A stretch of 64,000 bases of DNA from IMG/VR virus record IMGVR_UViG_3300024308_000004, positions 38,641-102,640 of that record. One strand, given 5' to 3'. Of this stretch, positions 9,368-30,460 are shown in pieces. Origin of the DNA: a virus. Taxonomy: Duplodnaviria > Heunggongvirae > Uroviricota > Caudoviricetes. How positions within the stretch are numbered: the stretch's first letter is position 1; each line of letters starts with the position of its first letter. The translations under genes were made by a program, and so were the position numbers. The notes beneath the pieces were generated by a model that saw only the letters and a list, made by a program, of their open reading frames with translations, was not told the origin of the DNA and did no database searches.

Positions 9368-12300
9368 ATGACAGACAAAGTAATGTGGGGCTTCCAGACG
9401 CACTTTAGCGTCGGAGAATCCATCATCGATCCGGAGGAGGGCGTCAAGCTCGCCTCCGAAAACGGCTATACGCACGTTGCCCTGGCGGACACAATGTCCG
9501 TCTCGGCGCTTATCAGTGCGACCAAGCAGGGCAAGAAGTCCGGGGTGAAGGTTATCCCGGGTGTGACCCTGCGCGTCAAGAATCCGTATGTAGAGTGGGG
9601 CTATTTGTATCCACGCGTGTACGCCAAGACAGAAGCCGCAATGAAGCGGCTCTATGCGTTGTTGTCCGACACCGAAAAGGACCGCGACTGGCATTACGTC
9701 ACGCTGGAAAAACTCTGCGATGCGCTCGCAGATGACATGACGGTTGCGTCAGGGGTAGTGTATGGCCTGTTTGGGTCGTCGCTCACCGTAGCGCAGCGCG
9801 ATGAAGTGATCGCTAAGATCGAGGATCGCGTGGGCCGCAATTCCATCAACTTCATGGTTGACGTTGCCGCAATCGAGACGCCTGCTTATGCGATGCAAAA
9901 CGCCGCTGGCATTCTCGCAGCGCGTGGTAAGGAATGGGTGACGGCGATCAACCCGATTGCGCTGTACGCTCGTCCAGGCGATCACGATGCGCGTGACGTG
10001 ATGGGCGCGCTGTTGGCTCGCCGTAAGATCAGCATGGGCACCATGCGTTGGTTCCCGTCGCACAACCGCAATATCAAACCTTTCGGTGAAGTCGAAAAGG
10101 AACTGGAGAATTCGCTGGTTCTGGCTGGTAGCATTGGTTCGCCAATCGTTCACGCTGATTACATGGCGACGTATATAGCGCCGGTATTCCCGTATGAATA
10201 CTACTGGGAAAAATCAGGCCCTGCCATGCCGCAGATGGCTCCTGATGAATTCGAGGAACTGAAATCGCAGTGCAAGGCCCGTTTTGCCGATCGCATCATG
10301 CGACCGGTGTTCGGCTATCAGCCCGACAAGGCTGATCTACCCAAGTATGTGGAGCGCCTGAAATATGAATTGGACATTCTCGGCAAAATGGGTTTCTCGG
10401 GATACTTCCTTCTCGTCGCCGACCTCGTACAGTGGTCCAAAGACAATGGCATTATCGTGGGACCTGGACGCGGTTCTGTTGGCGGGTCTCTTGTCGCCTT
10501 CATCATGGGTATTACGGAAGTTGATCCTATCCGCTTCAATCTCCTCTTTGAGCGATTCATCAACCCCGGACGAAAGGACTTACCCGACGCTGACTTGGAC
10601 TTTCAGTCTGAGCGACGCCATGAAATCATCGGGTATCTCCGCGACCGATATGGACTGGACAATGTTGCGGGGATTAGTAACTACAACACTTTACAAGGAG
10701 CTGGCTCCCTTCGCGATGTTGGCAAAGCTCTCGGTCTGACGGAGAAGGATTATGAGTGTTCAAAGCTTGTCCCGAAGGTACACGGTATACCAGTCGCACT
10801 TGCGGAAGCGCGTCACACCGTCGCAGACATTGACCAGTTCGCCAAGACTCACCCCGAAGCCTTCGACATTAGCTGCCGACTTGAAGGTGTTCTCCGAGCT
10901 ATGGGCCAGCACGCAGCCGGCGTGGTTGTTTGCCACGAGCCTCTGACGAATCGTGCGGTCGTAGAAACGCGCGCCAAGGATCAGTGTATCAATTGGGACA
11001 AGCGTGTGTCGGAAGAACAAGGCTTGGTCAAGATCGATATTCTGGGTCTGTCCAACTTGGACGTGATCGAGAAGGCGTTCAACAAAGTCCGGGATGAAAC
11101 AGGCAAGAAGATCGATATCCTGGATATTGACCTGAACGACCGCAAGGTCTTGGATGCGTTCGGTCGTGGTGAAACTATCGGCGTGTTCCAGTTTGAGTCC
11201 TCGGGTATGCGTAAGCTCCTGAAAGACTTGCAAAAGGGTGGTGATCTGACCTTCGAGGAACTGTCGGCAGCAATGTCGCTGTACCGTCCGGGTCCGATGG
11301 ATTCGGGCATGTTGTCCGACTTCGTTTCGATCCGTCAAGGCGCCCAGGAACCGTACTACGACCACGACAACATGCGTCCTGCCCTGGAAGTAACGGGTGG
11401 CGTGATTATCTATCAGGAGCAGGTCATGCAAGTGGCCCGCGACCTCGCTGGTTTCAGCCTGCAAGAAGCTGACGACCTGCGAAAAGCGATGGGTAAGAAA
11501 GACAAGGACGCAATGGCTGAACAGCGCGACAAGTGGGTCGATGGTTGCGTTGCGCATTCTGGAATGAATGATCGTGTTGCAGGTGCCTTGTTCGACAAGA
11601 TCGAAGCCTTCGCAGGCTATGGTTTCAACCGCTCCCACTCGATTGAGTATTCCATTATCTCGTTCGTGTCCATGTGGCTGAAGGTCTATCACCCTCTGCA
11701 ATTCTACGCAGCGTCCTTGGAGGTTCTTGGCGAAGATAAACTCCTGGGTCTTATCGAGGACGCGGCCAAGCGCGGTATTAAGGTGTTACCTCCTGATATC
11801 AACGGGAGCGATGGCAGCTTTAAGCGCGATGGGTCTGGTAAAAACCTCACCTGCCCCTTCAACCGACTCAAAGGCTTGTCCGACAACACCCAAGCCGCGA
11901 TCCTCACGGCCCGCGAAGCTGGTCCATTCAAATCTAAGGCTGATTTCATCGCTCGGGTGGAAAAGCGCAAGTGCAACTCCCGGCACCAAGAAATCCTCGA
12001 CCGGGTCGGTGCGTTTGCGTCGGTAGAACCAGGCACGCCACCAGCAACATCACCCACTCGCGTGCGTGACCAGTTGGAACTCATGCCGGGGCTGGTCTCA
12101 GCCAAAGTAAACGTGGACCGTGAAGTTGTGTGGGATGAATTCACAAAGGAACAGATCAAGAAATTGGTCATCGATCCGGCAATGGACATTGCAGCTTCGC
12201 CCGTGATGCCCCGTTCGTCCAAGCAAATCCGGGCAATGGTTATCACCGACGCTGCGACCAAACAGGAAGAAAAGTCTGGCGCGTTCATGAATGGCAGCAA

Positions 12301-12679
12301 TGCTGATTACGTCCGCGAAGCCGTTGAAGAAGCTGGTGGTAAATGGAACAAGGGGTTCTACTATACGGCGTTGTGTAAGGTGCCCAAGAAGGATAAGCGG
12401 TTGACTGGTAAGGAAATTTCCGATTGGAAGCCCTTGCTGATGAAGGAAATCGCCATCATCCAGCCACCCATCATCATCGCCCTTGGCTCCGAAACGGCTC
12501 GCATGTTGGTCCCGGATTTGAAGGGCCCAATTAAGGAACTTGCCGGTAAGGTGGTCTATAATAAGGAACTCGATGCGAACATCGTTATCGGCATCAACCC
12601 TGGCATGATCTACGTGGACGAGTCCTCGATGGAACTGTTGGTGAAGACTTTTGATACGGTGCGAGAACTGACCGAATGA
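9368..12679 (+). CDS. dnaE: DNA polymerase III alpha subunit (DnaE-type) with C-terminal UDG-superfamily-like domain
   Basis: N-terminal PHP domain, and the Pol III alpha core [71 protein letters not shown]. The last ~160 aa resemble family-4 UDG in motif order but with the catalytic motifs replaced. Confidence 0.9.
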   Translation: [1103 protein letters not shown]

Positions 12680-13240: not shown

Positions 13241-13453
13241 ATAGTCCGCACTCAACTAGGCTATTAGGGGAATAACCCCATATTTATGATAGAAGCATCC
13301 GGACCTAACGGTTAATTGTGTAGCTCTGTCCAGGCGGTGAAAGCCGGCTCGTACATCACGCAATTCAAGGCCACTAGCGATAACCCGCTGGTGGCCTTTC
13401 TTCGTTTAGGAAGATTTATTTTCAACCCAGTTGCAACATTTCTCGCTTCCCGA

Positions 13454-13461
13454 GGTATAAT
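13454..13461 (+). promoter_or_regulatory. Putative -10 element GGTATAAT upstream of the SSB gene
   Basis: ttgcaa...(19 nt)...GGTATAAT lies 47 nt upstream of the ATG at 13508. The leader ends in an AAAAAGGA RBS. Confidence 0.3.
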
Positions 13462-13507
13462 AGTGACACAAGCGAGACACTCTCAAACACAACAAAAAGG
13501 AACACAA

Positions 13508-14344
13508 ATGGCCCTCTTAGACATTATCAAAGCCAATCGCGCCAAGCTCCAGCGTGGTGCCAACAACCGCACTGAGAAGCTCCAGTCGGGCAAGAGCACC
13601 GTTCGCATCCTGCCGTCCTGGACTGGCAGCGAGGACGATGAATTCTCCCAGGCTTGGGGTCAGCACTTCATCAAGGACACTGGTGGTAATCTGAAGGCAG
13701 TTTACATCTGCACCAATACCATCTTCGATGAAGTCTGCCCGATCTGCGAAGCCATTGCGCAAGGCATGGCCACCAACAACGACGAAGATATCCTGAAGGC
13801 TATGAAGGATGGTCGTTCCAGCAAGCGTATCCTGGTGAATGCGCTGTACCTGTCGGGTGGTAAGAACGAGAATCCGACCACCAACCCCGTCGTGCTGGAA
13901 CTGCCGCCGACCGTTTTCGAGAAGATCCTGGCTGCTGCTGCGACCTTCCTGGAAGAAGGCGTCAACGTGTTCAGCCTCAAGGAAGGCCATAACTTCATCA
14001 TCGAAAAGACTGGTGCTGGTATGAACACGGAATACTCCGTCACGCCGTCCCCGCGTGGTAGCGCTGTCAGCATCACCACCGATAAGCTGGTGAACCTGGA
14101 AGATTGGGCACGTCAGGAAGGTGAAGCTGACAAGCAGAAGGCTCTGGCGTCGGTTCGTGCGATTGCCGGTGTTGCAGAAGTCAGTCATACCGCTCCGCGC
14201 CTGGCCGCTCCGACCAGCAACTCGGCGACCAATGCTCGACTGCGTGATACCAACGTTGTTGACGCCGACTTTGAGGACGTTGTTGAACAGAAGCCGGACT
14301 TGTCGGGTTCGGATAACATCGACGACTTCCTGGGCGAACTGTAA
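13508..14344 (+). CDS. Single-stranded DNA-binding protein, T4 gp32-like
   Basis: VRILPS (compare T4 IRFLPS), a Cys/His zinc site (CTNTIFDEVCPICE) and an acidic C-terminal tail DNIDDFLGEL. The upstream in-frame extension from 13316 is judged noncoding. Confidence 0.75.
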   Translation: MALLDIIKANRAKLQRGANNRTEKLQSGKSTVRILPSWTGSEDDEFSQAWGQHFIKDTGGNLKAVYICTNTIFDEVCPICEAIAQGMATNNDEDILKAMKDGRSSKRILVNALYLSGGKNENPTTNPVVLELPPTVFEKILAAAATFLEEGVNVFSLKEGHNFIIEKTGAGMNTEYSVTPSPRGSAVSITTDKLVNLEDWARQEGEADKQKALASVRAIAGVAEVSHTAPRLAAPTSNSATNARLRDTNVVDADFEDVVEQKPDLSGSDNIDDFLGEL

Positions 14345-14353
14345 GGAGTAACA

Positions 14354-14380
14354 AAGGGCCTCGCAATGAGGCCCTTTTCA
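14354..14380 (+). terminator. Rho-independent terminator after the SSB gene
   Basis: GGGCCTC-gcaat-GAGGCCC stem followed by a TTTT tract. The first ATG of the downstream ORF lies inside this hairpin. Confidence 0.6.
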
Positions 14381-16870: not shown

Positions 16871-17953
16871 ATGACACGACCCATTCTCATTTTCTCCGAT
16901 CCGCATTACCACGATTTCTCCCAGTTCAGCACCATCAATGCGAACGGGTTGAACTCACGGCTTGCGGATACTTTGCGTGCCACGGTTGAGGCGTACAAGA
17001 GCGCCAATGCTCTGGGCGCATACACGGCTATTTGCTGTGGCGATATTTTCCATGTACGTGGCAAGGTCAAGCCTTCGGTTTTAAACCCCACGATGCAGAC
17101 ATTCCGGAACCTGCATGATCGTCTGGCGTTCCGTACGCACGCAATCAGTGGCAATCATGACCTGGAAACCGATAAGTCTTCCGACTTGAACTCGGCGATC
17201 ACTTCGCTGCGGTCGATTGAAGGCTTTGCGGTGCATTCTGAAAACATCTGCCACACGATGCTGGATGAATTCAGCGTGCAGGTGACTTTCATTCCCTGGG
17301 AGCCTGACCTGAAAAAGCTCCGTGCGCTTATTAAGGCTGGCCCAAGGAGCACTGACAAACCTACAGCGCTGGTCATCCACGCGCCCATGAATGGAGTTAT
17401 CAAGGGCTTACCGGATCATGGTCTGACGGTCGATGACTTCAAGGATTGCGGGTTCGACAAGGTATTTATTGGGCACTATCACAACCACAAGTCATTCAAG
17501 GTTGGCAAGACCGAAGTAATTTCAGTAGGCGCCTTGACCCATCAGAACTTCGGTGACGTGGAACATCGTGCAGGTTATCTATTGTGGTATCCCGACACGG
17601 GTAAGGTCGAGCAGTTCGCGACCAAGGCCCCGAGGTTCATACACGTCCCGGCTGATCGTGTGCAGGACTTGGTACCTGGTGCTGCGGCTGATAACTACAT
17701 CAAGGTTGTTGATGGTGAGTTTGAGAACGAGGCAGAAATCCAGGCGATCCGTGATGAACTGATCCTGAAAGGCGCCAAGGCTGTCGTAGTCGAAGGGATC
17801 ACTAAGCGTCCGGCAGTCACACGCGGGACCACTACGACTTCGGCAGCACCAACGATCCATTCGATCTTGGGTGATTACGTGCAACGGACTTATCCAGGTG
17901 ATGAAGCTGCGTTGGCTGAGGCTATGGATATTCTCAATGAGGTTTATGTATGA
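16871..17953 (+). CDS. SbcD/Mre11-like nuclease (T4 gp47-like)
   Basis: Calcineurin-like phosphoesterase motifs ILIFSDPHY, CCGDIFH, ISGNHD, GHYH. Confidence 0.75.
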   Translation: MTRPILIFSDPHYHDFSQFSTINANGLNSRLADTLRATVEAYKSANALGAYTAICCGDIFHVRGKVKPSVLNPTMQTFRNLHDRLAFRTHAISGNHDLETDKSSDLNSAITSLRSIEGFAVHSENICHTMLDEFSVQVTFIPWEPDLKKLRALIKAGPRSTDKPTALVIHAPMNGVIKGLPDHGLTVDDFKDCGFDKVFIGHYHNHKSFKVGKTEVISVGALTHQNFGDVEHRAGYLLWYPDTGKVEQFATKAPRFIHVPADRVQDLVPGAAADNYIKVVDGEFENEAEIQAIRDELILKGAKAVVVEGITKRPAVTRGTTTTSAAPTIHSILGDYVQRTYPGDEAALAEAMDILNEVYV

Positions 17954-19866
17954 GTATGGTTGAATTTGATCTGCTGGAAGTAACCTCGTTCATGGCGATC
18001 GGTGTTGCTCAGGTCAACCTGAAACAACGAGGTCTGGTATTCATTGAAGGCGAGAACCTGGATGACACCAGCGCACGGTCAAACGGCGCTGGCAAGTCTT
18101 CATTGGTCGATGCGATCAGTTGGTGCTTGTATGGCATCACTGCGCGTGGCGTGTCCGGTGATGCTGTCGTCAATCGCCAGGCGGGTAAGGGCACCGAAGT
18201 TGCCATGAATGTCTGGATCGATGGCAAGCTGTGGCGTATCGAACGTGGTCGCAAGCACAAGACCTTGAAGAACCGTGTACGCCTACTCCAGATGGACAGT
18301 GGTACGTGGCACGACTGTACGTTGGGCACGGATAAATTGACCCAAGAGCGCATCGACGCCTTGCTGGGTTGTAACGCAAAGACCTTCAACGATGCCGTGT
18401 ATATGGGCCAAGAGCGCATGGTTGATCTGCCCTCGATGACCGACAAGGTGTTGAAGTCCACGTTGGAACAGGCGCTGTCACTGGACCGGCTCGATGAAGC
18501 ACAGTCCATTGCTTCGATGCGGTTGGAGAACGCCAACATCGCCCATCGTCAGCATCGCTACGATATGGACGACCTGGTCCAAAAGGTCGTAAGCAACACC
18601 GACAAGCTCAAAGCCGCTGAGACCACAAAGATCCAGTTGGAATTCGATATGACCAATATCGAAGAAGAACGCCAGCGATTCCACAAGGATAATCTCCATA
18701 CAGTATCGATCGCAGCCAAAGAAGAAGAGGCTGCAACGTTGGAAGTGGCGCAGTGTATTAGCGCCGTGCGTGATGCGGAACTAGAAGTCGCAAAGGTCAA
18801 GGAAGAAATTAAACTGGTTGCTGCCGAGTCCAAGAAACTATTGGCCAATACCGACAAGCTCTTGGACGTGCTGACTGACATTCGGGCGTCACGTAAAATC
18901 CTGCACGACCACATCAACAATCCTAGTTCATGCACCACATGTAAGCGTCCGTTTGATGACCACGAAGACATTGAAGCCAAGCGTGCCGATCATCAAAAGG
19001 AATATGCTGCATTGGGTGTCAAGCTGGAGAAGGTGGTTCAAAAGCGTGCTGAACTGGCTGACAAGAACACGACGATGGTGACTGCGGCAACACGGGCTGA
19101 ACTGATGGCTGTATCCGCATTGGAATCGGCGCAATCGAAAGTCAAAGCCGCTGAGACCCGCTTGTCGAACGCTAAAGAGATACTGACAAAAGCGCGAACC
19201 AATGATAGGCTGTTGACGTTGGATCGCTGGCTCAAAGAGAAACAGGATCGCCATGATCAAATCGTCCGGGACATGCTCGTTATTGGTGAGGTGATCGCTG
19301 ACGCCACAGGTGAGGTCAAAGAGATTGAGGCGCGTCTGACTGAAAGCCAGGAGCGTATCGATACCTTGGAGCGCGTCAAGCACATCCTGTCACGCAAGGG
19401 TTTCCGTGGTGAAGTCCTGGATCAGGTCACGCCGTATCTGAATGCCCGGACTCAGTATTACCTAACGTGGTTGACTTCGGACAACATCACTGCGACATGG
19501 AACACTGTAACCGTAACCAGTAGTGGCGATCTGTCTGAGAACTTCCATATCAAAGTCGCACATCGTGAAGGCGCAGAGTCCTTTGAGGGCCTGTCTGGTG
19601 GTGAAAAGCGTAAGGTTCGCCTTGCGTGCGCAATGGCTCTGCAAGACTTGGTTGGTACGCGTGCGATCAAGCCTATTAAACTCTTTATCGCCGATGAAAT
19701 CGATGACGCCATTGACGAGTCCGGATTGGAGTTGCTGATGGGCCTACTGGAAGAAAAGGCGAAGTCAGTAGGCACCCTGCTGATTATCAGCCACAATGCG
19801 TTGGGGGATTGGTGCAAGGAAAGCATCACGGTTACCAAGAAAGACGGTGAGACGACCATTAAGTAA
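17950..19866 (+). CDS. SbcC/Rad50-like ATPase (T4 gp46-like)
   Basis: Walker A SNGAGKSSLVDAISWCLYG, a long coiled-coil with a CxxC zinc hook (CTTCKRPF), the ABC signature LSGGEKRKVRLA and D-loop FIADEIDDA. Confidence 0.8.
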   Translation: MSMVEFDLLEVTSFMAIGVAQVNLKQRGLVFIEGENLDDTSARSNGAGKSSLVDAISWCLYGITARGVSGDAVVNRQAGKGTEVAMNVWIDGKLWRIERGRKHKTLKNRVRLLQMDSGTWHDCTLGTDKLTQERIDALLGCNAKTFNDAVYMGQERMVDLPSMTDKVLKSTLEQALSLDRLDEAQSIASMRLENANIAHRQHRYDMDDLVQKVVSNTDKLKAAETTKIQLEFDMTNIEEERQRFHKDNLHTVSIAAKEEEAATLEVAQCISAVRDAELEVAKVKEEIKLVAAESKKLLANTDKLLDVLTDIRASRKILHDHINNPSSCTTCKRPFDDHEDIEAKRADHQKEYAALGVKLEKVVQKRAELADKNTTMVTAATRAELMAVSALESAQSKVKAAETRLSNAKEILTKARTNDRLLTLDRWLKEKQDRHDQIVRDMLVIGEVIADATGEVKEIEARLTESQERIDTLERVKHILSRKGFRGEVLDQVTPYLNARTQYYLTWLTSDNITATWNTVTVTSSGDLSENFHIKVAHREGAESFEGLSGGEKRKVRLACAMALQDLVGTRAIKPIKLFIADEIDDAIDESGLELLMGLLEEKAKSVGTLLIISHNALGDWCKESITVTKKDGETTIK

Positions 19867-19878
19867 CCGCAATATGAT

Positions 19879-19908
19879 ATGTGAGCGCAGATAAACGAGC
19901 GCTCACAT
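19879..19908. promoter_or_regulatory. Perfect 10-bp inverted repeat ATGTGAGCGC-(10 nt)-GCGCTCACAT
   Basis: Lies between the sbcC stop (19866) and the H1-like gene start (19930). No T tract follows, so it looks more like an operator or RNA hairpin than a terminator. Confidence 0.4.
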
Positions 19909-19929
19909 CCCTAACCAAGAGTACACATC

Positions 19930-20538
19930 ATGGCAGTCGCCAAGAAAGCAACCAAGAAGACCACCAAGAAGGTCGTGAAGAAAGCCGTCGCCAAGAAGAC
20001 CGCAGCGCCGAAGAAGGCAGCCACCCCGGTCATCGTCAAGCCCGACCTGAACCTGGCCCGTCGTCAGCTGGCCCACGATTACGTCAACCGCATCAACCTG
20101 CGTGTGGGCGATGAATTTCAGGTGCTCTGGGTCGGTGACTTCAAGACCGACAACCTGATCGGCCAGCAGTGCGACGACTGGCGCAACAAGGAAGACGAAT
20201 ACGTCATCTTCAAGGGCATCAACCACGAAGGCTCGCTGATCTGCGCCGACATTGATGACGAAGACCTGACCTACGAACTGCCGGCCGAGTCCGTCAACGT
20301 CGATGAAATCGACCGCAATGGCGGCAATGGTTCGGTCCGTCTGAACCGTGAATACACTGCCGATCTGTCGAACGTCCGCCACGGCCGCATCGAAGTGGGC
20401 TGCCAGAGCATCGAAGTGTCCGTCGTCCTGGCCCTCGCCGATCGCATCAAGGAAATCCAGGCTGGTGCCACGCGGAAGAATAGCCGCGACGTGACCCTGG
20501 TCGCCGATGGCACCTACGCCGAGCTGGCTTTCAAGTAA
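19930..20538 (+). CDS. Lysine-rich histone H1-like / DNA-binding protein
   Basis: N-terminus AKKATKKTTKKVVKKAVAKKTAAPKKAATP (KK/AKK repeats) followed by a ~150-aa globular domain. Flanked by the IR upstream and a strong terminator downstream. Confidence 0.55.
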   Translation: MAVAKKATKKTTKKVVKKAVAKKTAAPKKAATPVIVKPDLNLARRQLAHDYVNRINLRVGDEFQVLWVGDFKTDNLIGQQCDDWRNKEDEYVIFKGINHEGSLICADIDDEDLTYELPAESVNVDEIDRNGGNGSVRLNREYTADLSNVRHGRIEVGCQSIEVSVVLALADRIKEIQAGATRKNSRDVTLVADGTYAELAFK

Positions 20539-20544
20539 TACCCC

Positions 20545-20578
20545 AAAGGGCATGTCGCAATGACATGCCCTTTTTCTT
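20545..20578 (+). terminator. Rho-independent terminator
   Basis: GGGCATGTC-gcaat-GACATGCCC followed by TTTTTCTTT. Confidence 0.7.
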
Positions 20579-21254: not shown

Positions 21255-21682
21255 TGGATTTCTGCGTGAAGCGACCTGTTAGCGCAGTGGTCACGCTGAA
21301 AGATGGCCGCATCCTGATCGGTGGGAACGTTTGTACCAATCAACAACCAACATGCCCCCGACAACCAGGAGAAGGCTATGAAAAATGCTACACCGTCTGT
21401 GGACAAATCGGACACGCCGAACAAGTCGCAATCCGGCTTATCGTCGCCGAGCAACTTACTGGGTCAGCAGCTAACCATGTCACGAGTGTGGACGTCTATG
21501 GTCACCATGGACCCTGCGATGCTTGCAAGCGCATGTTGGTTGCTTTCGGTCTGGATAAAGTAACAAAGTTTCATCCGCTGGCCAGCCCGGTCCCACTCGA
21601 TAAGGGTGACATTGACGCCATCAATCGAGAATACGGGCTGTACCAGCTTGGCTCTCACTCAAAACAAAAAGGGGATTGGTAA
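21254..21682 (+). CDS. dCMP/cytidine deaminase family zinc enzyme
   Basis: HAEQVAI ... PCDACKRML zinc-binding motifs (H-A-E ... P-C-x-x-C). Confidence 0.7.
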   Translation: MDFCVKRPVSAVVTLKDGRILIGGNVCTNQQPTCPRQPGEGYEKCYTVCGQIGHAEQVAIRLIVAEQLTGSAANHVTSVDVYGHHGPCDACKRMLVAFGLDKVTKFHPLASPVPLDKGDIDAINREYGLYQLGSHSKQKGDW

Positions 21683-21969
21683 TGCAAATGCTGTTTTTCG
21701 TCGTACTTTGGTTGGCGCTCGCGTGGTACGCAGCCCGACCCATTGCTCGCAAGGCTTTCCAGGACTGTGATTCGGACAACATCGCGGCGTTCATTGGCTG
21801 GTGGGCATTGTTCGCTCTGCTTGTTGCGATCCCGGCACTCATCCTGACTGTTGTATGGCCGGTTACTCTGGTTGGTCTGGCGCTGGGTGCCCTGTACGTG
21901 TTCGTGCCGAAGGTCAAGTCCGTGGTTGATGCCAAGCTGGCACAGATCAAGGAATACGCCGAAGCATGA
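21682..21969 (+). CDS. Small membrane protein (two predicted TM helices)
   Basis: MQMLFFVVLWLALAWYAA and ALFALLVAIPALILTVVWPVTLVGLALGALYVFV hydrophobic segments. Confidence 0.45.
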   Translation: MQMLFFVVLWLALAWYAARPIARKAFQDCDSDNIAAFIGWWALFALLVAIPALILTVVWPVTLVGLALGALYVFVPKVKSVVDAKLAQIKEYAEA

Positions 21970-23247: not shown

Positions 23248-23298
23248 GGTGTTGACGCAGGAGGGCTAGGGCTTTATACTAGCCCTCCTGTATGAAGT

Positions 23299-23373
23299 AG
23301 GGCCGTAGCTGAGTGGTTTAGCTCTCGCCTTTTAAGCGAGTTGACGTGGGTTCGATCCCCACCGGCCCCACCA
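23299..23373 (+). tRNA. tRNA-Lys (anticodon TTT)
   Basis: Anticodon stem CTCGC/GCGAG with loop cTTTTaa. T-arm GTGGG-TTCGATC-CCCAC. 3' CCA encoded. Exact acceptor register uncertain. Confidence 0.7.
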
Positions 23374-23390
23374 ACATGAGTATCTTTAGG

Positions 23391-23466
23391 TGTGTGCGTT
23401 GACTGTATTGGTTCAGTCGCCTGATTGTGAGTCAGGAGCATGTGGGTTCAATTCCCATCGTACACC
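23391..23466 (+). tRNA. tRNA-His (anticodon GTG)
   Basis: Acceptor GTGTGCG/CGTACAC, D-stem GACT/AGTC, anticodon stem CCTGA/TCAGG with loop ttGTGag. T-arm GTGGG-TTCAATT-CCCAT. Position -1 is T, so no G-1 is encoded. C73. Confidence 0.7.
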
Positions 23467-23480
23467 CCTAAAGGTATTTA

Positions 23481-23568
23481 GGATAATTAGACGTTTAAGG
23501 AGAACGCCCCGGCTGTAACCCGGGTACCCTAACGGGTCCGCAAGGTTCGGTACCTTGATTATCCACCA
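23481..23568 (+). tRNA. tRNA-Tyr (anticodon GTA), class II with long variable arm
   Basis: Acceptor GGATAAT/ATTATCC plus A plus CCA. Anticodon stem CCCGG/CCGGG with loop ctGTAac. Variable-arm hairpin ACCC-taac-GGGT. T-arm CAAGG-TTCGGTA-CCTTG. Confidence 0.7.
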
Positions 23569-23692
23569 CATTGGACGTAAACGAAAAAGGCGTTATAGTA
23601 GGTAGAGTGCCGAGAACGCCTGAAAGACCCGAAGGTCTACGGACTAGTGAAGCTCTAGGCTCTACACGTCCAACCACACAGTAGGAGGTAAC

Positions 23693-23779
23693 ATGCTGAT
23701 CGTACAAGGCTTATTGTTCTTTGCCGTGATGCTCGCTGCCTTCTACGCCGTATGGAAAATCGGCACAACGAAAAAGTGA
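23693..23779 (+). CDS. Tiny hydrophobic peptide (28 aa) inside the tRNA island
   Basis: MLIVQGLLFFAVMLAAFYAVWKIGTTKK, preceded by an AGGAGG RBS. Confidence 0.2.
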   Translation: MLIVQGLLFFAVMLAAFYAVWKIGTTKK

Positions 23780-23859
23780 GGGGTCTTTATACCGTTAGGT
23801 GATTAGACTGTGGATACAAGTCGGGCTCTGTTGTTCACCCGAATCCTCACGAATGTTTA

Positions 23860-23936
23860 GGATTGTAAGCACAAGTGGTATATGCACCGGCCTGTTAAGC
23901 CGGGGACAGATGGTTCGAGTCCATCACAATCCGCCA
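23860..23936 (+). tRNA. tRNA-Asn (anticodon GTT)
   Basis: Acceptor GGATTGT/ACAATCC plus G plus CCA. Anticodon stem CCGGC/GCCGG with loop ctGTTaa. T-arm GATGG-TTCGAGT-CCATC. Confidence 0.7.
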
Positions 23937-24024
23937 GCCCGAATAGAGTCCGCATACAAAAACCGGGTAGCTCTCAATGGTTGTAGGTGACGATGGGTTT
24001 GTATAGGAACCTTCATGAATTCAT

Positions 24025-24101
24025 AGGCGCGTGGTGAAGTGGTCCAACACAGCAGACTTTGACTCTGCCATTCCTAGGTTCAAATCCTAGCGCGTCTGCC
24101 A
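24025..24101 (+). tRNA. tRNA-Gln (anticodon TTG)
   Basis: Acceptor AGGCGCG/CGCGTCT (one G-U pair) plus G plus CCA. Anticodon stem GCAGA/TCTGC with loop ctTTGac. T-arm CTAGG-TTCAAAT-CCTAG. Confidence 0.7.
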
Positions 24102-24120
24102 AACAACAAACGAGGACACT

Positions 24121-24393
24121 ATGAAAATCGGTGACATTGCAGCACACGGGCGTTACACTAACCGGATTGGTTTCGTTACTGCGGTCAACCACGCATCACA
24201 TGGTCCGATCAGTTCCTACGAAGTCGAGTGGCTGAACGGCTCGCAACAGGGCAAGCGGGATACGATTAGCGCATGGAACGTTGTTGACATGCAGGAAGCT
24301 CTGGAATCAGCGCGTGCCGAAGTCAACCGTCGTGAAAGCGACCTCATCAAGTGGTGTCACGCAGCAGCAATCGCAAAGATCGCCGTCAAGTAA
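24121..24393 (+). CDS. Hypothetical protein embedded in the tRNA island
   Basis: 90-aa ORF between tRNA-Gln and tRNA-Trp. Confidence 0.4.
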   Translation: MKIGDIAAHGRYTNRIGFVTAVNHASHGPISSYEVEWLNGSQQGKRDTISAWNVVDMQEALESARAEVNRRESDLIKWCHAAAIAKIAVK

Positions 24394-24397
24394 CAAA

Positions 24398-24473
24398 GTT
24401 TGGGTAGCTCAACAGGCAGAGCGCTGGTCTCCAAAACCAGAGGTTGTGAGTTCGACTCTCACCCCATTCGCCA
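24398..24473 (+). tRNA. tRNA-Trp (anticodon CCA), imperfect acceptor stem
   Basis: D-arm GCTC...GAGC. Anticodon stem CTGGT/ACCAG with loop ctCCAaa. T-arm GTGAG-TTCGACT-CTCAC. The acceptor GTTTGGG/CCCATTC has two U-U mismatches, so it may be a degenerate copy. Confidence 0.55.
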
Positions 24474-24563
24474 GTAAGAGCCGAAGTGAGAACTGGGGTA
24501 CGCCGCGAGGTCCCAGCGAGTCTGTTCCGACTATAAAAGTGTCTCACAAAGGCTCGATGTATC

Positions 24564-24639
24564 GCCGGTATAGCTCAGATGGTAGAGCAGCGCACTTGTA
24601 ATGCGCAGGTCCTGGGTTCGATGCCTAGTGCCGGCACCA
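24564..24639 (+). tRNA. tRNA-Thr (anticodon TGT)
   Basis: Clean cloverleaf. Acceptor GCCGGTA/TGCCGGC plus A plus CCA. D GCTC/GAGC. Anticodon stem GCGCA/TGCGC with loop ctTGTaa. T-arm CTGGG-TTCGATG-CCTAG. Confidence 0.85.
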
Positions 24640-24685
24640 CAAACCCGCTGTACGCCCCGGGGATAACGGGTGTACGACAAATTAC

Positions 24686-24762
24686 TGCGGGTTAGCTCAG
24701 TGGTTTAGAGCGTTCGGCTGATAACCGAGAGGTCGGGAGTTCAAATCTCTCACCCGCAACCA
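24686..24762 (+). tRNA. tRNA-Ile (anticodon GAT)
   Basis: Acceptor TGCGGGT/ACCCGCA plus A plus CCA. D GCTC/GAGC. Anticodon stem TTCGG/CCGAG with loop ctGATaa. T-arm GGGAG-TTCAAAT-CTCTC. Confidence 0.8.
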
Positions 24763-24896
24763 AAAGAGTCAGCGTGCGGGGTTCGAGACCCCGGTAGTCC
24801 GCGAGAGGGCTAAGTATTGCGGTACGACGTTGCACCTAAGTGACTATACTGGTATAGTCCGCTCCGGGGTCAGGCGTTATTGGCCTCATGTATTTA

Positions 24897-24973
24897 ACCG
24901 AGTGTAGCTCAATCTGGTGGAGCAACGCGTTTGGGGCGCGAAGGCTGGGAGTTCAAATCTCTCCGCTCGGACC
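24897..24973 (+). tRNA. tRNA-Pro (anticodon TGG)
   Basis: Acceptor CCGAGTG/CGCTCGG plus A plus CCA. D GCTC/GAGC. Anticodon stem CGCG/CGCG with loop ttTGGgg. T-arm GGGAG-TTCAAAT-CTCTC. Confidence 0.7.
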
Positions 24974-25170
24974 AAAAATGGAGGTGGTCTGCTAGGTGGA
25001 TTAGAAACCCATCGAGCATTGTTAGCCTCCAGATAAATGAGGTAGTTATTAGTAACGGCTGTAGGGCCGCCAACGTAAGACGCCTCAGATAAATAGGTGT
25101 TGAAACGGCCTTGTGTGGGCACTGTTCTGTTCCAACCTAGTTGCTAACAGTTCCAGACACCTAGATACAA

Positions 25171-25200
25171 AAAGGCCCCTCATTGAGGGGCCTTTTCTTT
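25171..25200. terminator. Bidirectional hairpin terminator AGGCCCCTC-att-GAGGGGCCT
   Basis: A runs precede and T runs follow the GC-rich stem. It closes the first tRNA block and also serves the convergent minus-strand ORF. Confidence 0.6.
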
Positions 25201-25364
25201 TACGAGCCTTGTGGCGGCTGTGCTTCCTGCAACTGCTGCACTTGGAACTCCAACATCTGAATACGACGAGACAGGTTAACAATCTGTGCCGGTGACGGGT
25301 CATCCCAGTTCGTCAGGGGTACAGCGTTGGGATCAAAGTCAAACGGTAAATCAGCCATCTCTAC
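25200..25364 (-). CDS. Possible minus-strand small protein (MADLPFDFDPN...)
   Basis: Internal ATG of minus ORF 25200-25421. Convergent with the bidirectional terminator. Acidic/Pro-rich N-terminus and Q-rich coiled C-terminus. Confidence 0.25.
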   Translation of the reverse strand, partial: VEMADLPFDFDPNAVPLTNWDDPSPAQIVNLSRRIQMLEFQVQQLQEAQPPQGS

Positions 25365-25421
25365 TACTCCTACTCCACGAATACAAGTGTCCATTGTCCC
25401 GCAAAAGTACATGCAGGTCAA

Positions 25422-25811
25422 ATGATTGCCACGTCATCCCTGTTCTATACTTGTCGCATGTTGATATACGCACGCACTCCAAAATCAAAACGCTACAAGC
25501 GTCCGGGCATGGGTGATGTAGCCAAGAAGTTACCCAAGCAGAAGTTCAAACCCAAAGCTGCGCCGAAAGAAACAAAGTTCCGCGCAGAAGGTACTGAAAA
25601 GTATCGCTCCAAGATTGACGAACACTTGGCGAATAACGAACCGGTCAACAAACAACCGTTACGTTATGAGGATGCAGACATGGCAGCACGCGAAGCGGAA
25701 GCGCAAAAAGAAATCAAGCGCAAGTCCGAATGCGTAGCGCCGGCATTCAACAAGGGAAATCTTACTTACATCGCTACCGAGGAACAAGCGAAGTGGGTAG
25801 GTAGAAAGTAA
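25422..25811 (+). CDS. Hypothetical basic (Lys-rich) protein
   Basis: ORF. Start uncertain, with alternative ATGs at 25458 and 25509. Confidence 0.35.
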   Translation: MIATSSLFYTCRMLIYARTPKSKRYKRPGMGDVAKKLPKQKFKPKAAPKETKFRAEGTEKYRSKIDEHLANNEPVNKQPLRYEDADMAAREAEAQKEIKRKSECVAPAFNKGNLTYIATEEQAKWVGRK

Positions 25812-25847
25812 CAAATCATCCGCAAAATCTCACTGAGGCTCGGTATA

Positions 25848-26111
25848 ATGCGTACCAACAAAGGCTTTACCCTCATCGAACTGATGATCGTGATGGCTAT
25901 TATTGGCATCCTGGCGTCGATCTTCTACCCCATGTGGCGTGATCGCAACCTGACGGACTATCAGCGCCAGCAAAAACGCGAAGCCCTGCAACGTGAGTAC
26001 GCCAACACAGGCGTCCGTTGCATCGGTGGTTACAAGTTTGCACAACCGGACTGGAACAATCCGCCCGTGCAGATCAAGGACAACACTGGTAACGGGATTC
26101 CGTGCCAGTAA
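25848..26111 (+). CDS. Type IVa prepilin-like protein
   Basis: N-terminus MRTNKG/FTLIELMIVMAIIGILASI: a short basic leader, then Gly-Phe and the conserved Glu5 hydrophobic helix. C-terminal Cys pair (C...C, ~28 aa apart) typical of the pilin disulfide D-region. The CGGTATAATG motif overlaps the start. Confidence 0.75.
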   Translation: MRTNKGFTLIELMIVMAIIGILASIFYPMWRDRNLTDYQRQQKREALQREYANTGVRCIGGYKFAQPDWNNPPVQIKDNTGNGIPCQ

Positions 26112-26225
26112 GTAAATGGTTAGAAGTGGTCGTCTAAACCTCCATGCAAGTCGGGAAGAGACTTGGGCTATTCGGATCAGGACACTGCCGTTTGAGGCAG
26201 AGATAATCTTCAACCAGATTTAAAC

Positions 26226-26310
26226 GGGCCGTTGGCGAAACAGGCATACGCAGCAGACTTAAAATCTGCCGGAGAAATCCATGAGGGTTCGATCCCCTCA
26301 CGGCCCACCA
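26226..26310 (+). tRNA. tRNA-Leu (anticodon TAA), class II
   Basis: Acceptor GGGCCGT/ACGGCCC plus A plus CCA (perfect). Anticodon stem GCAGA/TCTGC with loop ctTAAaa. Long variable arm. T-arm GAGGG-TTCGATC-CCCTC. Confidence 0.85.
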
Positions 26311-26326
26311 CTTTAGGAGATACACG

Positions 26327-26536
26327 ATGGACCTGTATGAAACGCTGGGCTTGAAGCGCCCAACCAAAGAAGAAATGGAAATGCACCACGTCGCAACGAT
26401 CGGCGACCTGGAAGTCAACGCGTCGGAACACCTGGTCAATGTCAAGTGCGACGGCGAAGTCATCCTGGCCATCATGCGCCACGATGGTGGCTTGCAGGAG
26501 CTGGTCGATGCCCTGCAATCGCAGGTCAAGCCGTGA
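26327..26536 (+). CDS. Hypothetical small protein
   Basis: 69-aa ORF with an AGGAG RBS. Confidence 0.35.
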   Translation: MDLYETLGLKRPTKEEMEMHHVATIGDLEVNASEHLVNVKCDGEVILAIMRHDGGLQELVDALQSQVKP

Positions 26537-26703
26537 CCAAGGAAGAGGGCGATCAGATTCGCCTAGCGTATGGCAAGGTACTGACATACGCGGACAAGGC
26601 GATGAAAACTCCACCAGGTGTGCATCGTCGGATCGCCTTGAACGAATACTCCAAGGCGAAGAATGAATTCCGGGCGTTGTTGCGATCCCTGGAAGGCAAG
26701 TAG
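26536..26703 (+). CDS. Hypothetical small protein
   Basis: GTG/ATG overlapping the upstream stop. Start uncertain; in-frame ORF from 26446. Confidence 0.3.
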   Translation, partial: TKEEGDQIRLAYGKVLTYADKAMKTPPGVHRRIALNEYSKAKNEFRALLRSLEGK

Positions 26704-26706
26704 GGA

Positions 26707-26779
26707 GTTCTAGTAGCTCAGTTGGTAGAGCAGCCGCCCTGTAAGCGGTGTGTCGGGGGTTCGAGTCCCTTCTAGTGTT
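26707..26779 (+). tRNA. tRNA, second Thr-like copy (anticodon TGT with atypical C33; no CCA)
   Basis: Acceptor GTTCTAG/CTAGTGT (one mismatch). D GCTC/GAGC. Anticodon stem GCCGC/GCGGT with loop ccTGTaa. T-arm GGGGG-TTCGAGT-CCCTT. Confidence 0.5.
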
Positions 26780-26946
26780 GACAAGGACACTTGTCATAGT
26801 AAACCCCGATCAGGATGATGCGTCCCTAGAAGACTTATTCATCCTTCTTAAGTAGGGTCAGATAGTTTAACGGCGAGAACGCCCTGCGAGCGCGGGGAAG
26901 TAGGGTTCGAGTCCCAGAAAACAGGTGTAATCACCTGGATCCGATC

Positions 26947-26985
26947 AAGGCGTATAACTATTGTGGTTATACGCCTTTCTTTTGT
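26947..26985 (+). terminator. Rho-independent terminator closing the tRNA island
   Basis: AAGGCGTATAAC-tattgtg-GTTATACGCCTT followed by TCTTTTGTT. Confidence 0.7.
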
Positions 26986-27080
26986 TCTAGGGCAGTGAAT
27001 TGTTCAATTAACACCGTGCGATTCTTAAACGCGCCGTGTAAATATTCTCTAAAATCACTGCACACAGACGAGAAAGTAAC

Positions 27081-28040
27081 ATGGATCATTTCAAGGACGT
27101 GAAGGTTGTTGATTCATCCGACACGAACGTTTCCAAGTATGTGTTTGACATGGGCTCGGCAGTCGCCGAAGCCGTACTGTATAAGTACGGAACCTATGAA
27201 GAACGTACCGTGATCTGTTGCTCCACCCAGTCAGGCTGCCCCATCGGTTGCCGTTTCTGCGGAGCCGGTGATGCGTTCGTTCGTAACCTGTCTGCGGAAG
27301 AAATCGTCGCGCAGGTGGATCATTTGTTCGCGGATCGCAACATCGATCCAACCCAGGTCAAGCGTGGACAGATCATGTTCATGTCCATGGGTGAACCGTT
27401 GCTGAACCTCAAGCAACTGATCCCGGCGATGGAGGTCCTGTACGCCAAGTACCCCAACTTCGCGTTGCTGATTTCGACCAGCGCTCCGCGAGTGGATTTC
27501 ACGCCGTTGTTCCGGGCAGCCGCGCTCATTCCGACCATTGGTTTGCAGTTCAGCGTCCACGAATCTACCGACGAGGCGCGTGACCGGCTGATCCCGTTCA
27601 AGAACAAGTACACCATCGCCGAGATTGCCATCCTCGGTGATATTTTCCACACCACTACGGGGCGTCAGGCGTTCTTCAACTACTGCGCCCATACGGACAA
27701 CACCGCGCAGGAAGATGCTGACCGCATCCACGCGCTGTTCAATCCTGCATCCTTCCAGGCAACGGTTTCGGTCATCTGCGAGCGGGATGAGTCCATCGCT
27801 GCTGCGAACGAACGACAGCGCGAACTTGCTACGGGATTCATGGGTAAGCTCTTGCAAAAGGGTTATTCCGTTCGCACATTCGACCCTGCTGGTCAGGACG
27901 ACATTGGAGGTGGCTGTGGTCAACTCTGGTTCGTGCAGGATTGGATGCGTCAACACCCTGATCTGGCCCGACCGTCCGTCGGTCGCGGGCTGCCCACTGT
28001 TCACACTCCACGAGCCATCGACGTAAAGGTGATCGAATGA
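27081..28040 (+). CDS. Radical SAM RNA methyltransferase, RlmN/Cfr family
   Basis: Family-specific signature ICCSTQSGCPIGCRFCGAG (CxSxQxGC-x3-C-x2-C) and FMSMGEPLLN (RlmN GMGEPLxN). At 319 aa it is shorter than bacterial RlmN. Confidence 0.8.
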   Translation: MDHFKDVKVVDSSDTNVSKYVFDMGSAVAEAVLYKYGTYEERTVICCSTQSGCPIGCRFCGAGDAFVRNLSAEEIVAQVDHLFADRNIDPTQVKRGQIMFMSMGEPLLNLKQLIPAMEVLYAKYPNFALLISTSAPRVDFTPLFRAAALIPTIGLQFSVHESTDEARDRLIPFKNKYTIAEIAILGDIFHTTTGRQAFFNYCAHTDNTAQEDADRIHALFNPASFQATVSVICERDESIAAANERQRELATGFMGKLLQKGYSVRTFDPAGQDDIGGGCGQLWFVQDWMRQHPDLARPSVGRGLPTVHTPRAIDVKVIE

Positions 28041-28315
28041 CCCAAGAAGTAGAGGTATCCGATGACAGCGAGCCAGCTGAAATCGAAGGCGAAATCCTTG
28101 AAGCGGACGACCTGACGTACTTCGTCTCCGGACCTTCGTGTGGCTTCATCGTCCAGGGCAAGCAATACATCAAGCCCATGACCATTGCGGCGTGCATGAT
28201 TAACGGCGACCCCGAGGAAGCATACACGCACCAGCAGGTCAAGTCCGTCGCAGTCGTTCCGCAACAGCCGTCAGTCCATCTGATGACCCGTCGCCACAAT
28301 ACCACCTTGCATTGA
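28037..28315 (+). CDS. Hypothetical acidic protein
   Basis: ORF overlapping the rlmN-like stop. Confidence 0.35.
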   Translation: MTQEVEVSDDSEPAEIEGEILEADDLTYFVSGPSCGFIVQGKQYIKPMTIAACMINGDPEEAYTHQQVKSVAVVPQQPSVHLMTRRHNTTLH

Positions 28316-28322
28316 GGCATTC

Positions 28323-28535
28323 ATGTTCGATCCCGCAATTACCGACCTTTACAAGCGCGCCCATGAACTGCGCAACGCCCAGCGGAACTACATCGCAGAC
28401 GGCACGCGCAACGAAATCCTGGGCCGAGAAGTCCACAACGCAGCCGAACGTCTCGATGCGGCGTTGCAAGTCGTAGAAGATGAAGGCTACATTGCGGAGA
28501 AGGATATCCGCGACGTGCGCCCGGTGACGCCGTAA
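28323..28535 (+). CDS. Hypothetical protein
   Basis: 70-aa ORF. Confidence 0.35.
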   Translation: MFDPAITDLYKRAHELRNAQRNYIADGTRNEILGREVHNAAERLDAALQVVEDEGYIAEKDIRDVRPVTP

Positions 28536-28708
28536 TGTGGGTCTTGATCCTGACCCTGGCGATGCGTGGTCAAGCTGTTACGGTAACCACGCAGGACGGC
28601 TTCGCGTCGCAGGAATCCTGCATGATCGCCGCGAAGGCATGGACGGAACAGGTTGAAAGGATGCCACTCAGCAATCTGCACCGACGCGCCCTTTGTGTCC
28701 GCAAGTAA
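28535..28708 (+). CDS. Small secreted/membrane-anchored protein (57 aa)
   Basis: MWVLILTLAMRGQA signal-like N-terminus. Under 60 aa, so not in the ORF track. Confidence 0.3.
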   Translation: MWVLILTLAMRGQAVTVTTQDGFASQESCMIAAKAWTEQVERMPLSNLHRRALCVRK

Positions 28709-28884
28709 GCCCGTTACTTAACGCTTCTAGGTCTTCACGAAACGCGTATACTAATCACATGTCGCAGCGATCTACATCCGCTGCGATAACAGAACCAAGC
28801 GTGATGGCTTGTGGTTGTCACAGAGGGTGACACTAATGACCGGGGTAGTGCCCGGGTACCCTTCGACTCTGGTGGGAAGCCAGA

Positions 28885-29006
28885 GACCATAAGAAGTTCT
28901 GCTGTCCAACACCCGCATTAACGTGATGCCGGTGTAAGCAAAGTCCTAGTCGATTACCTCCTAGTTGCCGAATAGGACGGACAGGGCAGCAGAACTTCTT
29001 ATGGTC
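28885..29006. repeat. Perfect 20-bp inverted repeat forming a ~120-nt stem-loop (GACCATAAGAAGTTCTGCTG ... CAGCAGAACTTCTTATGGTC)
   Basis: Arms at 28885-28904 and 28987-29006 in a 310-nt noncoding region. The 3' arm abuts the GAGGAG RBS of the gene starting at 29019. Confidence 0.6.
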
Positions 29007-29018
29007 GAGGAGATTCAC

Positions 29019-29216: not shown

Positions 29217-29241
29217 CCACAGACGTTGATGGAAAGAAATC

Positions 29242-29927: not shown

Positions 29928-29987
29928 CGTTGTGCAGCATCCCATATTTAACCTAGATATAGTGATTGCACACACTGGAGAACGTCA

Positions 29988-30430: not shown

Positions 30431-30460
30431 TCAACACACAATCACACGCACATACAAACC

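Follow-up and report, generated by a model that had tools for sequence, protein, structure and literature searches.

The gene under study (19930-20538, + strand) lies in a 64,000-nt stretch of a Caudoviricetes genome, hereafter the window, and encodes a 202-aa protein that begins MAVAKKATKKTTKKVVKKAVAKKTAAPKKAATPVIVKP. The window is ~82% identical at the nucleotide level to the Stenotrophomonas phages BUCTxx99 and ANB28, and a protein identical to that of the window (P0001) is encoded on a contig of 109,689 bp, with the phage genome at ~109 kb. Upstream of the gene is a replication/recombination block that includes: a DnaB-like helicase, primase, ATP-dependent ligase, CobT/CobS-like proteins, Pol III alpha, a gp32-type single-stranded DNA-binding protein (SSB), a 5'-3' exonuclease (FEN), RecA, an SbcD-like metallophosphoesterase (16871-17953, + strand) and an SbcC/Rad50-like ATPase (17950-19866, + strand). 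The SbcD and SbcC assignments are based on the BUCTxx99 annotation and on Pfam families of homologous contigs. The gene under study closes the block and is followed by small ORFs, a dCMP deaminase gene and a cluster of 12 tRNA genes with a tmRNA-like gene, which begins 2.7 kb downstream; ribonucleotide reductase and dUTPase genes are found farther downstream. No structural genes were identified near the gene in the window, which represents an early or middle region (replication, nucleotide metabolism and tRNA genes). An antisense ORF (19903-20553, - strand) of 216 aa is longer than the + strand ORF but is rejected as the true gene, as only the + frame has homologues and the GC content by codon position (0.62, 0.36 and 0.80 at positions 1, 2 and 3) fits the + frame. 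The antisense ORF is instead attributed to the high GC3 of the codons in the + frame.

The gene has a hairpin at each boundary. Downstream, positions 20545-20578 (+ strand) have the features of a predicted Rho-independent terminator, with a stem-loop of ~12-13 pairs and a 5-nt loop (20545-20573) followed by a T-run to 20578 (TTTTTCTTT). The centroid structure is at -19.7 kcal/mol (z = -4.4) and, across eight loci, both partners are changed in 6 of the 12 pairs, pairing is kept in 96% of cells and none of 500 shuffles reaches the covariation score; Rfam yielded sub-threshold terminator-like matches only. Upstream, a perfect 10-bp inverted repeat (19879-19908, + strand) is formed by ATGTGAGCGC (19879-19888), a 10-nt spacer and GCGCTCACAT (19899-19908). 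The folding energy of the repeat is -19.1 kcal/mol (z = -3.6), which none of 200 shuffled sequences equals, and a 10-bp stem without mismatches and with a loop of 3-12 nt would, by the authors' estimate, arise by chance in this 63-nt intergenic spacer with a probability of ~6e-4. The hairpin is present in all nine loci of the clade. Its covariation is supportive but thin: among the eight distinct sequences 96% of cells pair, yet only two pairs are changed on both sides and 7 of the 10 are invariant. Changes in the outer pair are symmetric (AT...AT to AA...TT), and in one locus (L004) an inner pair is altered on both sides (GTGAGCGC/GCGCTCAC to GAGAGCGC/GCGCTCTC). Directly adjoining the left arm is a -10-like hexamer, TATGAT (19873-19878, + strand), which is a candidate promoter element; the hexamer is TATGAT in 8 of the nine loci and TATAAT in L006, with flanking bases that vary. 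A Shine-Dalgarno-like AAGAG (19917-19921, + strand), read from the sequence, is positioned 8 nt before the ATG, and CCAAGAG is kept in 7 of the nine loci and changed in L005 and L004. The reading frame, the perfect repeat and the strong terminator had each been placed at exactly these positions by a first-pass annotation of the window.

That annotation also suggested that the inverted repeat may serve in autoregulation. The repeat would then be the double-stranded operator of a dimeric repressor, possibly the product of the gene itself, that controls the TATGAT promoter. The location of a perfect palindrome just downstream of a conserved -10-like box fits this proposal, and the symmetric arm changes are what a symmetric operator would also show. 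A palindromic operator would, however, be expected to keep its half-site spacing constant, to have a cognate DNA-binding protein and, in many cases, to recur in the genome, and none of these is seen here. In L004 the loop (and thus the half-site spacing) is 5 nt rather than 10 nt, with the pairing of the arms intact, and in some relatives the hairpin is followed by a terminator-like T-run. The repeat is also rejected as a repeated operator motif: the half-site TGTGAGCGC has 16 matches in the 64-kb window compared to 22.5 expected (at up to 1 mismatch), with no second paired site. In addition, the product has no recognisable helix-turn-helix, ribbon-helix-helix or similar sequence-specific DNA-binding domain, and the element is absent in a remote relative. 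An operator is, therefore, given a low probability, and autoregulation through the repeat, for which no support was found, is disfavoured. The likeness of the arm TGTGAGCGC to a lac-operator half-site is treated as coincidence, as the spacing is incompatible.

The inverted repeat is more readily interpreted as a boundary hairpin between sbcCD and the gene, overlapped by a putative promoter, and this reading is favoured. The sequence that follows the hairpin is CACAT-CCCTAA in the window, which lacks a T-run, CACTTTCCC in the BUCTxx99 clade and CTCTCTTTTCATTTC in L004, where a T-run is found; in the window, the hairpin would terminate transcription weakly or partially at best. Both arms of the hairpin would be present in RNA that reads through from sbcCD, while RNA initiated ~7 nt after the -10 box, the start site predicted from the position of the box, would have its 5' end within the left arm and would thus escape the hairpin. 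The promoter remains a candidate, as no good -35 element was found upstream of the TATGAT box and the box does not fit the CTCGGTATAAT promoter class of the phage. The CTCGGTATAAT motif is enriched in the window (18 sites compared to 8.6 expected). At 46783-46826, ahead of the dUTPase gene, a hairpin and TTTT come directly after this motif, in the same -10-then-hairpin geometry. The AACCGCAATATGAT element was tried as a general phage promoter and rejected (6 matches compared to 4.6 expected). As a separate observation, a promoter nested in a hairpin also occurs ahead of the tRNA cluster (23252-23290).

High-level expression, as proposed in the first-pass annotation, is plausible from codon usage and gene layout. 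The GC3 of the gene is 0.80 compared to a window mean of 0.58 (sd 0.08), the second highest of ~98 ORFs, and CTG, ATC, GCC, ACC and GTC codons are strongly preferred; codon bias of this type is indirect evidence of abundance. Three strong + strand terminators are found in the first 20.6 kb of the window, two of which bracket the gp32 SSB gene and one of which follows the gene under study. Besides this gene, the gp32 SSB gene (ORF 13316-14344, with a real start near 13505) is the sole terminator-bracketed gene of the replication block, and it likewise has its own -10 box. The gp32 protein coats DNA and is needed in stoichiometric amounts, which makes the parallel suggestive, although the two proteins are unrelated in sequence and fold. 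The gp32 gene also differs in its CTCGGTATAAT-like promoter (2 mismatches) and GC3 of 0.63, compared to the TATGAT box and 0.80 of the gene under study. The view of the gene as an insulated unit holds within the clade, where the terminator covaries and the boundary hairpin is conserved, but does not extend to a remote relative in L009, which is without flanking hairpins and in which the next gene begins 10 nt after the stop codon. The hairpin-gene-terminator layout is, thus, specific to this clade.

The N-terminus of the protein is a disordered Lys-rich tail. Residues 1-38 include 13 Lys, 9 Ala and 3 Pro with no Asp or Glu (net charge +13). Codons 1-35 (19930-20034, + strand), with 12 Lys and no acidic residues, form six xxKK units that are encoded by DNA of a 12-nt period (2.7 copies) and are devoid of secondary structure in the AlphaFold2 (AF2) model. 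Across the homologues, xxKK recurs strictly every 4 residues in a tail of 5-8 units (28-55 aa, 10-18 Lys), and the copy number varies, with one extra TKKT unit in ANB28. The first-pass annotation had allowed that the repeat could be a local low-complexity accident, lacking in close homologues. The Lys-rich N-terminus is instead present in 13 of 13 close homologues (12 found by a word-indexed search plus ANB28) and is the best-conserved segment of the protein, with a mean pairwise identity of 76% compared to 44-49% for the head segments. This pattern indicates a conserved and selected feature.

Tails of related composition are found on several DNA-associated proteins. The PAKKA tails of mycobacterial Ku and Hlp/HupB, the KPAA repeats of AlgP and the C-terminal domain of histone H1 are likewise disordered, rich in Lys/Ala/Thr/Val/Pro and free of acidic residues. 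The phage tail shares with these its short periodic units, variable copy number and attachment to a folded domain, and the phage gene is encoded near genes of DNA-end processing. By contrast, the phage unit is xxKK with a period of 4 and 5-8 copies, and the domain to which the tail is attached is neither Ku nor HU nor a winged helix. The long tails of H1 also set it apart from the phage protein, the tail of which is short in comparison. The H1/AlgP-like label of the first-pass annotation stands with respect to composition, as the protein does have the Lys/Ala/Pro-rich disordered tail of H1, but not with respect to homology. No Pfam family matches the protein even at E <= 10, the winged helix of linker histone H1 (Linker_histone) included, and the predicted head differs from this fold. 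Similarly, NCBIfam has no bacterial H1-like or AlgP match for the window protein, which is also without long KPAA/AAKP arrays; the relative P0013 reaches hist_H1_lk_Burk at E = 0.11, with 12.7 bits compared to a cutoff of 80. "H1-like", as judged by sequence, is thus a description of composition alone. The protein does not belong by sequence or fold to the classical nucleoid-associated families (HU/IHF, H-NS, Fis and Lsr2), and no known DNA-binding domain was detected by Pfam, PHROG, NCBIfam or the predicted fold, such that DNA binding has no support from homology. The case for DNA binding by the tail is instead one of analogy: tails of the Lys-rich PAKKA type associate with DNA, stimulate end-joining and are found repeatedly on DNA-binding proteins that are not related to one another (PMC3553676).

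The strongly basic tail, together with the signs of high expression and the single-gene layout, would also suit a protein that is packaged to condense DNA or is internal to the virion, where it would offset the charge of the genome in the capsid. The gene is, however, outside of any structural module and in an early or middle region. Furthermore, residues 39-202 have a net charge of -12 (pI 4.6), and this acidic head brings the whole-protein net charge to ~+1, which would make the protein a poor condensing agent. A virion role is, thus, regarded as very improbable.

The head, described in the first-pass annotation as a globular domain of unknown fold, reads as a helix, a Mind-bomb-repeat (SH3_15-type) beta-barrel and a new C-terminal module. 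The AF2 model on which this layout depends was built from a 51-sequence alignment and is of moderate confidence (mean pLDDT 74.6, pTM 0.52; ~80-90 over residues 40-180); it replaced a run with 12 sequences that gave a pLDDT of 55. In the model, residues 1-38 are disordered and are followed by a helix (40-54), a beta-barrel (62-128), two hairpins (135-162) and a second helix (163-177). On the DNA (all + strand), codons 36-61 (20035-20112) specify a linker, the helix of residues 40-54 and an LRVGD motif that leads into the barrel, with L40, A43, R44, H49, D50, R54 and L57-D61 invariant. The barrel, which is one of the variable segments of the head, is encoded by codons 62-130 (20113-20319) and the C-terminal module ('LNxxYTA...VGCQ...helix', two beta-hairpins and a helix) by codons 131-177 (20320-20460). 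The remainder (codons 178-202 and the stop, 20461-20538) is a low-confidence end in which R186 and Y196 are conserved.

Assignment of the barrel to the Mib-repeat/SH3_15 family (PF18346; MIB1 REP; PDB 4tse, 4xi6 and 4xi7) is made at the level of the profile and of the SH3-like beta-barrel fold. The 51-sequence family profile matches the MIB1 REP domain (E = 4.2e-10 and 1.4e-9), and 6 of the 51 members match PF18346 at E < 0.01, with P0106 above the curated cutoff; the window protein by itself is below the Pfam threshold and has no PF18346 match. Used alone, the window protein drew no match of note from Pfam, PHROGs, NCBIfam, PADLOC or PDB sequences, with phrog_35509 the best at E = 0.088, and a fold search of BFVD gave nothing at E <= 0.001. 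The best Foldseek match of the head is an MZM-REP fragment of MIB1 crystallised with a Jagged1 peptide, and a peptide-binding role for the head thus has precedent. MIB1, an E3 ubiquitin ligase of eukaryotes, has its repeats in tandem, whereas the 202-aa phage protein has a single barrel between a Lys tail and an unrelated C-terminal module. In archaea, small chromatin proteins such as Sso7d/Sac7d and Cren7 likewise pair an SH3-like barrel with a high lysine content, and these are abundant and DNA-associated.

A barrel of this type also raises the possibility that the Lys tail and an SH3/KOW-like barrel bind RNA (phage mRNA, the many phage tRNAs or ribosomes) and thereby affect translation or the stability of RNA. 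A Lys-rich tail binds polyanions of any kind, and the tRNA and tmRNA-like genes are close by. The sole sequence-level match of the barrel, however, is the peptide-binding Mib repeat and not KOW, and the synteny that is kept in remote relatives is with SbcCD rather than with the tRNA region. An RNA-directed function is, for these reasons, considered improbable.

The C-terminal module (LNxxYTAxV...VxVGCQxIxxxxVxEL), which corresponds to the last ~45 residues, has G157, C158 and Q159 invariant in the 51 sequences. It is not covered by any Pfam, PHROG or NCBIfam model and has no structural match. In two proteins (P0135 and P0109), this module is found behind Tad2-like (Thoeris anti-defence 2) domains, both of which score over the Pfam cutoff; the association is of the small module alone and concerns 2 of the 10 proteins examined.

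The family is real. The 12 close homologues are all on phage-sized contigs or in metagenomes, and an exhaustive profile search retrieved 305 proteins at E <= 1e-3 that fall into three groups: (i) full-length relatives of 190-230 aa with the Lys-rich tail at the C-terminus (P0016, P0019, P0020, P0022 and P0025) or at both ends (P0015, P0018, P0021 and P0031), (ii) proteins of 120-140 aa that have the barrel and the C-terminal module but no tail, and (iii) proteins, many of the 305, that have the last ~45 residues in common and place these behind unrelated N-terminal regions. A further homologue search added next to nothing, and a search for related loci yielded matches to the C-terminal module only. 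As the tail is at differing termini and is absent from the 120-140 aa relatives, it appears to have been gained or moved repeatedly with the head; the pairing of tail and head also appears to be selected, since the tail shifts between termini and yet stays on the same head. The acidic nature of the head is not universal, as several remote relatives are basic overall. Among 185,579 bacterial and archaeal genomes scanned, 600 matches to the Lys-rich pattern and no relatives were found. The family is known from two cultured phages and metagenomes only: tblastn against cultured phages gave nothing with P0024 and BUCTxx99 alone with P0016. Literature on the related phages, H1-like phage proteins and SH3_15 returned nothing relevant, and the architecture, the VGCQ module and the cassette behaviour outlined below are undescribed as far as the libraries and literature searched show.

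Linkage of the gene to sbcC is recurrent but not obligate. Three deeply diverged relatives are positioned directly after SbcC: P0020 (24% identical), P0031 and an ORF in L019, a locus with an SbcC of 40% identity. Of 18 IMG/VR loci that have a related SbcC, however, the family is present in two only, and ~14 of the 16 other informative SbcC loci have a different gene in the slot, mostly a different protein of ~230 aa that ends in FGxWA and otherwise unrelated ORFs. A universal SbcC-linked accessory gene is, thus, rejected. With so few SbcC loci that carry the family, the post-SbcC position is instead viewed as a variable slot of which this family is one recurrent occupant, and the link to SbcC is weaker than an obligate partnership.

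Relative to the BUCTxx99/ANB28 clade, the head-coding segment differs sharply from its surroundings. Nucleotide identity to BUCTxx99 is 92-97% up to ~20030, falls to 35-65% over ~20035-20540 and returns to 82-95% from ~20545. The dip (cassette at 20035-20540, + strand) is the same in the comparison to ANB28, with a left edge that is less exact due to the extra repeat unit of ANB28. At the protein level, identity to this clade is 35-37% for the head compared to 71-94% for the tail, 85-86% for SbcC, 73-74% for SbcD and 71-84% for most downstream ORFs. The sharp edges at the end of the tail repeat and at the terminator are, therefore, read as the footprint of a cassette replacement. Head and SbcC types are uncoupled, as L005 has an SbcC of 61% and a head of 74% identity, while BUCTxx99 has an SbcC of 85% and a head of 37%; this argues against a specific contact between the head and SbcC.

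The head also evolves fast over short distances. Nei-Gojobori dN/dS values of the gene in three independent close pairs are 0.51, 0.35 and 0.58, compared to 0.02-0.10 for SbcC and SbcD and <= 0.24 for the other real neighbours in those pairs. The window and its nearest relative differ at 24 codons of the gene (16 non-synonymous and 8 synonymous), and every one of these falls in codons 36-132. The helix and barrel are thus under either relaxed constraint or diversifying selection, two readings that fit alike given that dN/dS is below 1 and the sequences are few.

Genes in host-phage conflict typically show a similar pattern, with elevated dN/dS (0.35-0.58) confined to one domain and alleles swapped as cassettes. 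The variable SH3/VGCQ head may, on this basis, bind or sequester a host factor that varies among strains (a defence nuclease, sensor or nucleoid protein), with the tail concentrating the protein on DNA. The fusion of the VGCQ module to Tad2-like domains and the restriction of the family to phage and metagenomic contigs, to the exclusion of the bacterial and archaeal genomes scanned, are in agreement with host takeover or counter-defence. The window protein, however, has no PADLOC or anti-defence family match, and PADLOC was likewise empty for five relatives. The gene is also in a replication/recombination block and not among typical early accessory genes, the dN/dS values are explained equally well by relaxed constraint, and the Tad2 association is limited to the small module. 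A counter-defence function is, on balance, rated as possible but rather unlikely.

The product is proposed instead to be an abundant, DNA-tethered accessory protein of the phage replication/recombination module, a tentative reading that is held at slightly below an even chance. The disordered tail of 5-8 xxKK units, with a net charge of ~+12, would hold the protein on DNA with no need for sequence specificity. The acidic head (helix, Mib-repeat/SH3_15 barrel and VGCQ module) may act as a protein-binding platform, by analogy with the MIB1-peptide complex. In this clade, the gene would be expressed on its own, with the strong terminator ending the unit, and the protein is probably abundant, judging from codon bias. 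The head-coding segment is exchanged as a cassette among phage lineages and evolves fast, and the partner of the head is thus probably variable and possibly a host protein.

A more far-reaching version of this proposal, which is doubtful, is that of a chromatin-like protein of the phage. The xxKK tail would coat replicating DNA, while the hypervariable SH3/VGCQ head would either block a strain-specific host nuclease or defence sensor or recruit the SbcCD-type nuclease of the phage to DNA ends. The cassette would be exchanged as hosts change, and the VGCQ module would be a widespread partner-binding or oligomerisation unit of counter-defence proteins.

If the DNA-tethered accessory role is correct, the gene offers a testable case of an adaptor in which a low-complexity Lys tail is joined to a swappable protein-binding head beside an Mre11/Rad50-type nuclease. 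It would also provide a first functional handle on the C-terminal module of ~300 metagenomic proteins, some of which are fused to Tad2-like domains, and a handle on the Mib-repeat SH3 domains that are scattered in phage genomes with no known role. If the role is not correct, the gene is an ordinary fast-evolving hypothetical gene of a phage with well-defined boundaries. The -10 box that adjoins a hairpin may be of use in its own right: read-through and local transcripts would fold differently, and the arrangement is compact, could find reuse in phage engineering and is present in at least two instances in this genome.

In most related phages, the slot immediately 3' of SbcC is occupied by a ~230-aa protein family that is different from the Lys-tail protein, the 202-aa product with a Lys-rich N-terminal tail that closes the replication block of this phage. 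Members of this family are encoded on the related loci L021 (4414-5100), L022 (4453-5145), L026 (4414-5136), L032 (4425-5120), L034 (4401-5141) and L031 (4444-5130). The proteins share an MPL[IV]K N-terminus and a conserved aromatic C-terminal tail (...FGxWA), have no Pfam match and form an uncharacterised family that may be the functional counterpart of the Lys-tail protein. In the related Stenotrophomonas phage ANB28, an additional 163-aa ORF (L002, 3293-3784), likewise with no Pfam match, lies between SbcC and the conserved hairpin. This ORF, possibly inserted at the 3' end of sbcC, overlaps that end and has the same terminal ...PIK-TAA as SbcC.

The VGCQ module, the ~45-aa C-terminal unit of the Lys-tail protein, is also fused to the C-terminus of Tad2-like (Thoeris anti-defence 2) domains in the metagenomic proteins P0109 and P0135, the latter having two tandem copies of both the Tad2-like domain and the module.

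Besides the Lys-tail gene, the only single-gene unit of the replication block is the gp32-type SSB gene, which is flanked by two strong terminators (13367-13398 and 14353-14377) and has its own perfect TATAAT (13457-13462). The actual start of this gene is at ~13505, not at the TTG at 13316. The motif CTCGGTATAAT is over-represented in the window, with 18 sites at ≤2 mismatches compared to 8.6 expected, a count reached in none of 100 shuffles. Sites of this motif, all on the + strand, include 13451-13461, 25839-25849, 42535-42545, 43141-43151 and 46783-46793. It is found upstream of the RNR large subunit, dUTPase/dCTP-deaminase and gp32 genes, and possibly of tRNA-Leu. The motif is probably an early or middle promoter consensus of the phage, and it lacks a clear -35 element. 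Overlap of terminator and promoter seems to be a recurrent design of the phage genome: in the gap that separates the RNR small subunit gene from that of dUTPase (46783-46826), a terminator hairpin is immediately adjoined by a -10 box, and just 5' of the tRNA cluster (23252-23290), an 11-bp hairpin encloses a TTGACG-17-TATACT promoter.

In the tRNA region (23299-31129), small ORFs are scattered among 12 tRNA genes and one that is tmRNA-like (29572-29947; tag ANDDMFVVALAA). An RtcB-type tRNA ligase gene is present at 38783-39940. Besides the Lys-tail gene, two genes have a very high GC3, at 31640-32500 and 61147-62181 (GC3 of 0.82 and 0.77, respectively). One of these is assigned to phrog_200 ('lipoprotein'). 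The second is probably highly expressed and encodes 344 aa that match no family; its product shares just 49.7% identity with the corresponding proteins of BUCTxx99 and ANB28, so this gene too is strongly diverged. Within the block, the only gene besides the Lys-tail gene to be strongly diverged from the BUCTxx99 clade is a small hydrophobic ORF (97 aa, 21676-21969), with 46-50% identity and a moderately elevated dN/dS of 0.12-0.24.

Two further genes inside the replication block form a pair at 4782-8039: one is CobT-like (VWA domain), the other CobS/AAA-like ('porphyrin biosynthesis' PHROG). The phage Pol III alpha (9368-12679) has a uracil-DNA-glycosylase superfamily domain at its C-terminus (residues 951-1062, E = 1e-6), an arrangement shared with the remote relative on L009.
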